530 bases of DNA from Escherichia coli (GTDB lineage: Bacteria > Pseudomonadota > Gammaproteobacteria > Enterobacterales > Enterobacteriaceae): NCBI RefSeq assembly GCF_003334765.1, contig NZ_QOWT01000114.1; one strand, given 5' to 3'. Of this stretch, positions 251 to 497 are shown in pieces. The position numbers and the translations under genes are program-made. A model generated the notes under the pieces. That model had not been told where the DNA came from and made no database searches. It was given only the letters and a program-made list of their open reading frames with translations. Every line of letters begins with the position of its first letter. The first letter of the stretch is position 1.

Positions 251-326
251 TGGCGTCCCCTAGGGGATTCGAACCCCTGTTACCGCCGTGAAAGGGCGGT
301 GTCCTGGGCCTCTAGACGAAGGGGAC
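251..326 (-). tRNA. gltT/U/V/W: tRNA-Glu (anticodon UUC), complete 76-nt gene with encoded 3' CCA
   Basis: The reverse complement of 251-326 is GTCCCCTTCGTCTAGAGGCCCAGGACACCGCCCTTTCACGGCGGTAACAGGGGTTCGAATCCCCTAGGGGACGCCA. It has a 7-bp acceptor stem (GUCCCCU/AGGGGAC), a 5-bp anticodon stem (CCGCC/GGCGG) and a 7-nt loop CU-UUC-AC; the anticodon corresponds to plus 290-292 (gaa). The T-arm GGTTCGAATCC and terminal CCA (plus 251-253) are present. It matches the E. coli tRNA-Glu of the spacer-Glu rrn operons. The paralog cannot be decided from this window; minus-strand placement would fit gltW of rrnG only if the contig follows K-12 orientation. Confidence 0.97.
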
Positions 327-497
327 ACGAAAATTGCTTATCACGCGTTGCGTGATATTTTCGTGTAGGGTGAGCTTTCATTAATAGAAAGCGAACGGCC
401 TTATTCTCTTCAGCCTCACTCCCAACGCGTAAACGCCTTGCTTTTCACTTTCTATCAGACAATCTGTGTGAGCACTGCAAAGAACGCTTCTTTAAGG
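327..497 (-). other. 16S-23S internal transcribed spacer, proximal part (16S to tRNA-Glu)
   Basis: Lies between the 16S 3' end (498) and the tRNA-Glu 5' end (326) on the same strand. No ORF or independent signal; contains a 7-bp perfect palindrome at 340-356. Confidence 0.9.

Follow-up and report, generated by a model that had tools for sequence, protein, structure and literature searches.

The palindrome before tRNA-Glu in the long-form 16S–23S spacer of Escherichia coli and the two-tier hairpin around it

A perfect palindrome of seven base pairs with a three-nucleotide loop, ATCACGC-GTT-GCGTGAT, stands a short way in front of the tRNA-Glu gene in the stretch of Escherichia coli DNA analysed here (530 nucleotides in full, and referred to below as the window). 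A sequence-only reading of the window had proposed that this palindrome could form a small hairpin influencing 5′ leader processing of the tRNA, and had mentioned a protein-binding site as another possibility. The locus thus raises the question of what structure the palindrome belongs to, and whether that structure has any bearing on how the tRNA is matured. Its position had been described correctly: the palindrome is matched exactly at 340..356 on the minus strand, lies 14-30 nt upstream (in transcript sense) of the 5′ end of tRNA-Glu as placed by ARAGORN and Rfam, and falls inside the 16S–tRNA spacer, whose two borders were set by the same programs.

The window and its optional spacer cassette

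The window is a Glu-type 16S–23S internal transcribed spacer of an E. coli rrn operon, with a transcript that runs from right to left. On the minus strand it carries the 3′ end of 16S rRNA (530→498, corresponding to Rfam SSU model positions 1501-1533 and to E. coli genome annotation), tRNA-Glu (UUC) (326→251, found by ARAGORN and by the Rfam tRNA model at 60.1 bits) and the 5′ end of 23S rRNA (57→1, Rfam). Compared with E. coli chromosomes, the 530 bases are identical by up to 100% across annotated 16S, tRNA-Glu and 23S, and the identity to rrnB of MG1655 is 98.7% over 530 nt. Related copies of the window occur in all of the complete E. coli genomes searched (5,426/5,426).

The spacer between tRNA-Glu and 23S rRNA contains a full-length Rfam match to StyR-44 (RF01830; 173→65, minus strand; 124.9 bits, E = 1.6e-21). 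A boxA-like sequence, TGCTCTTTAAAAA, at about 176-164, downstream of the tRNA, is the start of this match, which is preceded by a boxB-like hairpin (178-193/202-217; 16 nt, 88% complementary). On the other side of the tRNA, no boxA (TGCTCTTTAACAA-like) was found after the hairpin described below, as would be the order in the boxB-boxA arrangement of rrn antitermination.

The palindrome lies in a part of the spacer that occurs in two forms. The long and short forms are alike in the 16S-proximal part up to …AAGCAAGGCGT, after which the long form continues with a cassette of 106 nt (327..432, read 432→327 on the minus strand, and delimited by aligning the two forms) that stands in place of the 20-nt, unstructured block CTTGCGAAGCAGACTGATAC of the short form. 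The cassette runs exactly to position −1 of the tRNA, and the hairpin that contains the palindrome is its 3′-terminal module. In E. coli the long-form spacer measures 171 nt and the short-form spacer 85 nt, and MG1655 has both, with the 171-nt form in rrnB and rrnG and the 85-nt form in rrnC and rrnE. Of the 5,426 complete genomes of E. coli, 2,791 carry the 106-nt block, always on the chromosome, with a median of one copy and a maximum of seven, and it is at least 99% identical in 2,775 of these 2,791. The Glu-type operons, four in K-12, would be the expected carriers, compared with seven cassette matches in at least one complete genome.

The 106-nt block in place of a 20-nt block is presumably the element called 'rsl' (ribosomal spacer loop) of the E. 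coli rrn operons. Harvey, Hill, Squires and Squires reportedly described rsl in 1988 (J Bacteriol 170:1235) as a 106-nt block that replaces a 20-nt block. The size of rsl and its polymorphic distribution over operons and strains are the same as those measured for the cassette of the window, with no difference in identity, and we assign the element in the window to the long-form (rsl) cassette of E. coli. A relA1 subline is reported to have lost rsl from rrnB; the relA1 laboratory lines XL1-Blue and MC4100 each gave two cassette matches.

Several other identities for the cassette were considered and set aside. A mobile element or dispersed repeat of the REP, ERIC or MITE kind was rejected on its low copy number, its chromosomal location, the lack of any match in phages and the fact that the only plasmid match was to a 1.4-Mb E. 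coli replicon; given the same results, we regard the cassette as an optional, low-copy and rrn-specific element and not a mobile repeat. A known RNA family was ruled out by a search of Rfam 15 at E ≤ 1, where no family overlapped 327-432 and the matches in the window were tRNA, StyR-44 and the SSU and LSU ends. An open reading frame of 33 amino acids with an ATG start (MKAHPTRKYHATRDKQFSCPLRLEAQDTALSRR, 280-381, minus strand) begins within the cassette and extends through the hairpin into tRNA-Glu, and it is almost certainly spurious because its start codon is absent in Cedecea.

The distribution beyond E. coli was followed in a scan of one genome per species with a search pattern that lay wholly within the tRNA and was therefore free of bias from the leader. 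The scan returned at least 78 loci, mostly from Enterobacterales, and in nearly all of the listed loci that showed the 16S end the 16S–tRNA-Glu spacer was only 80-86 nt long and lacked the hairpin. Among the loci listed, a long form (168-173 nt) was seen for the window, for Cedecea colo (L051) and for Tatumella morbirosei, with two operons in the last (L009 and L010), and no other sampled species among those loci had the cassette. The sequence-only reading had named conservation across Glu-type spacers as a check on the palindrome, and the outcome is divided: the pairing is kept in three genera, whereas the palindrome is absent from most homologous spacers. The cassette is likewise missing from about half of the E. 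coli genomes and, in MG1655, from two of its four Glu-type operons. As most Glu-type spacers and many E. coli lack it, the hairpin is no general requirement for processing of the tRNA-Glu leader.

The short-form spacers have features of their own. Some 18-31 nt upstream of tRNA-Glu they contain a hairpin, GCAAG-GCGU-CUUGC, which is small and conserved (as in L025:12471-12555), and they end in one of two alternative 20-nt tails, …GAAGCAGACU… and …GAUUGAGACU…, in which the last 5 nt before the tRNA vary. Three loci filed under the labels Chryseobacterium sp. 18061, Chryseobacterium mucoviscidosis and an Oxalobacter MAG (L049, L061 and L067) have 16S–tRNA-Glu spacers of the Enterobacterales or E. 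coli type, those of L061 and L067 being identical to the E. coli short form. Spacers under these Chryseobacterium and Oxalobacter labels probably reflect contamination or mis-binning of public records.

The two-tier hairpin and its covariation

A structure prediction on the minus-strand transcript, also suggested as a check by the sequence-only reading, confirms a hairpin in the tRNA-Glu leader, although one that is neither small nor isolated nor 14 nt away from the tRNA. The palindrome is instead the apex of a two-tier hairpin of 16 bp, which ViennaRNA folds at −15.4 kcal/mol as an outer helix of 8 bp, an inner helix of 8 bp, a 3-nt loop and a one-sided AGCAA bulge of 5 nt. The transcript reads 5′-CACGAAAA-UAUCACGC-AAC-GCGUGAUA-AGCAA-UUUUCGU|G-3′, in which the vertical bar marks the RNase P site.

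At the DNA level the palindrome, as the core of the inner helix, extends to a perfect stem of 8 bp (TATCACGC/GCGTGATA, 339-346/350-357, inverted repeat I7), and a further inverted repeat, also perfect, of 8-10 nt (325-334/357-366, I5) encloses it. In the transcript the inner helix, which is supported by I7, by the folds and by covariation, joins the 5′ arm UAUCACGC (350..357, minus strand), paired in both the minimum free energy and the centroid folds, to the 3′ arm GCGUGAUA (339..346, minus strand) through the apical loop AAC (347..349, minus strand), whose sequence is variable. The bulge AGCAA (334..338, minus strand) is unpaired in all folds. The outer helix, which corresponds to I5, has CACGAAAA (358..365, minus strand) as its 5′ arm, and its 3′ arm (326..333, minus strand; placed by ARAGORN, I5, fold and covariation) consists of UUUUCGU, that is leader positions −7 to −1, plus G+1 of the tRNA. 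Thus 333→327 pairs with 358-364, and G+1 (326) is able in the fold to pair with C365, likewise in Cedecea and Tatumella. The RNase P cleavage site of tRNA-Glu falls between 327 and 326, so that the base of the hairpin adjoins it; this base is A·U-rich and weak.

Taken alone, a palindrome of 7-8 bp is only mildly unusual here, as a perfect hairpin with a loop of 3-8 nt and a stem of at least 8 bp arises in 5.4% of mononucleotide-shuffled windows, and in 12.6% when the stem may be as short as 7 bp. The composite hairpin is another matter. Dinucleotide shuffles fold at −4.4 ± 1.9 kcal/mol compared with its −15.4 kcal/mol (z = −5.8), none of 200 shuffles was as good, and the hairpin is retained when the whole spacer and the tRNA are folded together.

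The same two-tier hairpin ending at G+1 is formed in individual folds from E. coli, Cedecea and Tatumella (−14.9, −15.3 and −14.1 kcal/mol, with z of −4.8, −4.3 and −3.5, respectively). The outer helix is CACGAAAA/UUUUCGUG in E. coli, CACAAAAA/UUUUUGUG in Cedecea and CGUGAAAU/AUUUCACG in Tatumella, and the inner helix is UAUCACGC/GCGUGAUA, UAUCACCC/GGGUGAUA and UAGCGAAUC/GAUUCGCGA in the same order; the loop is AAC, GGU and AGU, and the bulge is AGCAA in the first two and (C)AGCAA in Tatumella. For the alignment, MAFFT did not place the Tatumella indel in the same register on both arms, and for this reason three bases, those of an additional G-C pair and of an additional bulge position, were removed from Tatumella by hand to give an ungapped alignment. 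In this hand-registered alignment of three genera, which represent three independent lineages, standard pairs occupy 63 of the 64 pair cells (98.4%; 100% of cells in the outer helix), and double-sided, compensatory changes are found in 7 of the 16 pairs, four of the eight in the outer helix and three of the eight in the inner one, while no pair shows one-sided variation only. None of 500 column shuffles reached any of five covariation measures, and sliding the 3′ partners by ±1-3 columns reduced pairing to 25-56% with at most one compensatory pair. The AGCAA columns are invariant across the three genera while both flanking helices change in sequence. Among rare E. coli variants, changes in the hairpin are confined to the loop (AAC→AGA in strain KD0845) and leave the stems unchanged. 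Judging from these sequences, base pairing is upheld by selection across Escherichia, Cedecea and Tatumella, as expected of a selected RNA structure. The alignment holds no G·U pairs by which to distinguish the strands; it is the rrn setting, along with the conserved, one-sided bulge, that assigns the hairpin to the minus strand.

These data bear directly on the view that the palindrome is a DNA site for a dimeric protein, or a product of chance, which we now consider so improbable that it hardly enters the argument. Its perfect dyad symmetry and the frequency given above for stems of at least 7 bp in shuffled windows would suit that view. The symmetry is kept, however, while the sequence is not: the inner stem of Tatumella (AGCGAAUC/GAUUCGCG) is almost entirely different and still paired, on which ground the protein-binding alternative raised by the sequence-only reading is rejected. 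The palindrome is moreover enclosed by a further helix that covaries and has an asymmetric bulge, and the z-score of the composite fold together with the covariation rules out a chance palindrome and makes the composite hairpin more than chance.

A second reading at the DNA level, an intrinsic terminator on the plus strand that would stop antisense transcription directed against the rRNA operon, is very improbable. In favour of it, TATCACGC-GTT-GCGTGATA is followed by TTTTCGTGT, and this is the only terminator-like site that a simple scan found in the window (plus strand, stem 339-357, span 339-366); Cedecea is similar, with TTTTTGTG after the stem. One such site must nevertheless be read against 0.6 ± 0.8 in shuffles, and the Tatumella tail, UAAUUUCA, is weak. 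A U-tract needs no distal CGUG–CACG pairing, yet pairs 2-4 of the outer helix covary, and the invariant AGCAA would have no role on the plus strand. The window contains no promoter-like site, and we know of no antisense promoter here. A terminator on the sense strand was likewise discarded, in that AGCAA separates the inner stem from UUUU, the U-tract is itself paired and the scan gave no minus-strand site.

The hairpin is not the only structured part of the cassette. Upstream of it lie the hairpin GCUUUC-UAUUAAU-GAAAGC (374..392, minus strand), seen in the individual folds and in the consensus fold with three compensatory pairs, a GGCU…GGCC hairpin (397..415, minus strand), seen in individual and consensus folds, and a further hairpin (422-440, minus strand). 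All three are kept across E. coli, Cedecea and Tatumella. In E. coli KD0845 a G→A change breaks one pair of the 374-392 hairpin.

Searches of metagenome contigs with patterns spanning leader and tRNA returned no further homologues. The pattern GCAANTTTNNNGTCCCCTTCGTCTAGAGG, which matches E. coli rrnB, gave 0 contigs among 241 million metagenome records, and this suggests that Enterobacterales rrn spacers are essentially missing from that collection or unassembled in it.

A possible role in 5′ maturation of tRNA-Glu

A precedent for an effect on RNase P comes from Ender et al. (2021), in which hairpins of 11-15 bp that use the leader directly upstream of an E. coli tRNA as their 3′ arm block the enzyme in vivo and in vitro, and in which opening the base of the engineered hairpins restores cleavage, a residual upper hairpin being harmless (PMC7897497). 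The rrn element resembles these engineered sequestor hairpins, and the RNase P riboswitch of the same work, in that its 3′ arm is the proximal leader and its base masks −1 to −7, and a 3′ arm made of leader positions −1 to about −7 and adjoining the tRNA is found in E. coli, Cedecea and Tatumella alike. The sequestor hairpins, however, are synthetic and ligand-switched, with 11-15 continuous base pairs and a demonstrated block (PMC7897497), whereas the rrn element is natural, bulged and built of 8 + 8 bp on an A·U-rich base, with no ligand known. Its likeness to a sequestor hairpin is one of geometry only.

Natural leaders offer further parallels. According to a 2023 review, kcat/Km is affected when the part of the leader next to the cleavage site forms a stable secondary structure, and leaders with G(−2)U(−1), the two residues with which the long-form leader ends, can extend the acceptor stem (PMC10731613). 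Pairing between the leader and the 3′-RCCA of natural pre-tRNAs (PMC9433436; PMC10731613) likewise puts paired leader nucleotides that need unwinding beside the cleavage site; in the rrn element, by contrast, the partner is an upstream segment of the leader within a discrete conserved hairpin.

By analogy with these systems we tentatively propose, with a confidence somewhat short of even, that the hairpin gates access of RNase P, keeps spacer and leader folded on themselves and caps the excised spacer, with the bulge serving as the site of a factor. Being transcribed ahead of the tRNA, and having the proximal leader from −1 to −7 as its 3′ arm, the hairpin would serve as a naturally occurring 'sequestor hairpin'. 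It would hold both the long spacer and the U-rich proximal leader in folds of their own and keep them from invading the tRNA or the 16S 3′ processing stem. Access of RNase P would require the A·U-rich outer helix to open, and 5′ maturation of tRNA-Glu would be slower, or gated, from long-form operons (rrnB and rrnG in K-12) compared with short-form operons. After the RNase III and RNase P cuts the hairpin would lie flush at the 3′ end of an excised spacer fragment of about 138 nt, which it would shield from 3′ exonucleases. The invariant single-stranded AGCAA bulge would probably be the place where a processing factor recognises or enters the RNA; more speculatively, an RNase E cut at AGCAA↓UUU would leave a leader of 7 nt and dissolve the outer helix. 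Any such effect must be modulatory and non-essential, since the cassette is absent from about half of the E. coli genomes and from most Enterobacterales sampled.

The main rival to gating is that the structure serves self-containment only: an optional insertion of 106 nt must fold on itself so as not to disturb 16S 3′ processing and tRNA folding, its hairpins would be kept for that reason alone, and there would be neither a specific kinetic effect on RNase P nor a role for the fragment. We regard this as possible though on the whole doubtful. That the cassette consists throughout of hairpins, each conserved in its own right, and that it is dispensable and patchily distributed all fit. So do the accessibility scores: with the measure used by Ender et al., the E. 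coli long form has a probability of 0.0001-0.0015 that −7 to −1 is unpaired, compared with 0.0000-0.03 in most short-form leaders and 0.47-0.81 in the Tatumella long form. As most short-form leaders score similarly low, thermodynamics does not mark the long form as more sequestered. What self-containment leaves unexplained is that the outer helix ends exactly at G+1 in three genera, and that an invariant 5-nt AGCAA persists between helices that change.

The same bulge invites a further explanation, that the hairpin is an endonuclease signal at which RNase E (AGCAA↓UUU) or RNase III trims the long spacer down to a short leader before RNase P acts, which we rate as quite unlikely. RNase E has the consensus RN↓WUU (PMC5222698), and the unpaired, invariant AGCAA with the bases that follow it fits this motif in all three genera; rrn spacer regions are also slightly up in rne mutants and strongly up in rnc mutants (PMC3082872). 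The motif is nonetheless short and degenerate, with a chance expectation of some 1 in 64 at each position, and half of it takes part in base pairs, its WUU part lying within the outer helix. For RNase III, the 16 interrupted base pairs fall below the length of typical substrates, which are longer. The literature searched holds no mapped site.

That literature is silent on the element more widely. Exact sequence strings of the element had no occurrence in searchable papers, which also yielded no experiment on this hairpin, no RNA from the region and no mapped processing site. Papers on the transcription of rrn spacer tRNAs and on RNase E and RNase III tiling arrays do not address this leader, and Mohanty et al. 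(2020) do not treat the rrn-embedded tRNA-Glu.

A more ambitious version of the gating proposal would make the long-form cassette a conserved module for operon-specific maturation of tRNA-Glu, working through RNase P gating, possibly licensed by RNase E, and yielding a stable spacer RNA of about 138 nt with a role of its own. We think this unlikely. Spacer-derived stable RNAs are known as processing by-products that persist through their hairpins, among them 3′ETS-leuZ, Ile-tRF-5X from the 16S–tRNA-Ile leader (PMC9514646) and StyR-44 (RF01830), and the excised long-form spacer is predicted to end in a flush hairpin, its accumulation being predicted only. Were the module reading true, it would explain why the fold has been kept in an apparently dispensable cassette across Escherichia, Cedecea and Tatumella.

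Meaning for the rrn operons

The hairpin is a modest and dispensable feature, and the palindrome is its tip within a larger RNA structure. The sequence and the cassette are already known, the rrn spacer cassette since the 1980s; what may be new here are the covariation across genera, the abutment to the RNase P site and the homologues in Cedecea and Tatumella, all of them modest details. On the comparison of sequences, the proposal of a leader hairpin is partly supported: the structure is selected and larger than had been reported, it reaches the cleavage site, and it is absent from most homologous spacers. An influence on 5′ leader processing is plausible by way of the sequestor-hairpin precedent (PMC7897497).

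If there is no gating, the palindrome is still explained by a known optional variant of the spacer, and should not be taken for a regulatory DNA site. E. coli has four tRNA-Glu genes, which all lie in rrn operons and encode an identical tRNA. If the hairpin does gate RNase P, these four genes would not be equivalent, and the rrnB and rrnG copies would mature with different kinetics. Gating would also give a functional meaning to the heterogeneity of rrn operons and to the cassette, and would make the hairpin a natural counterpart of the engineered RNase P riboswitch.
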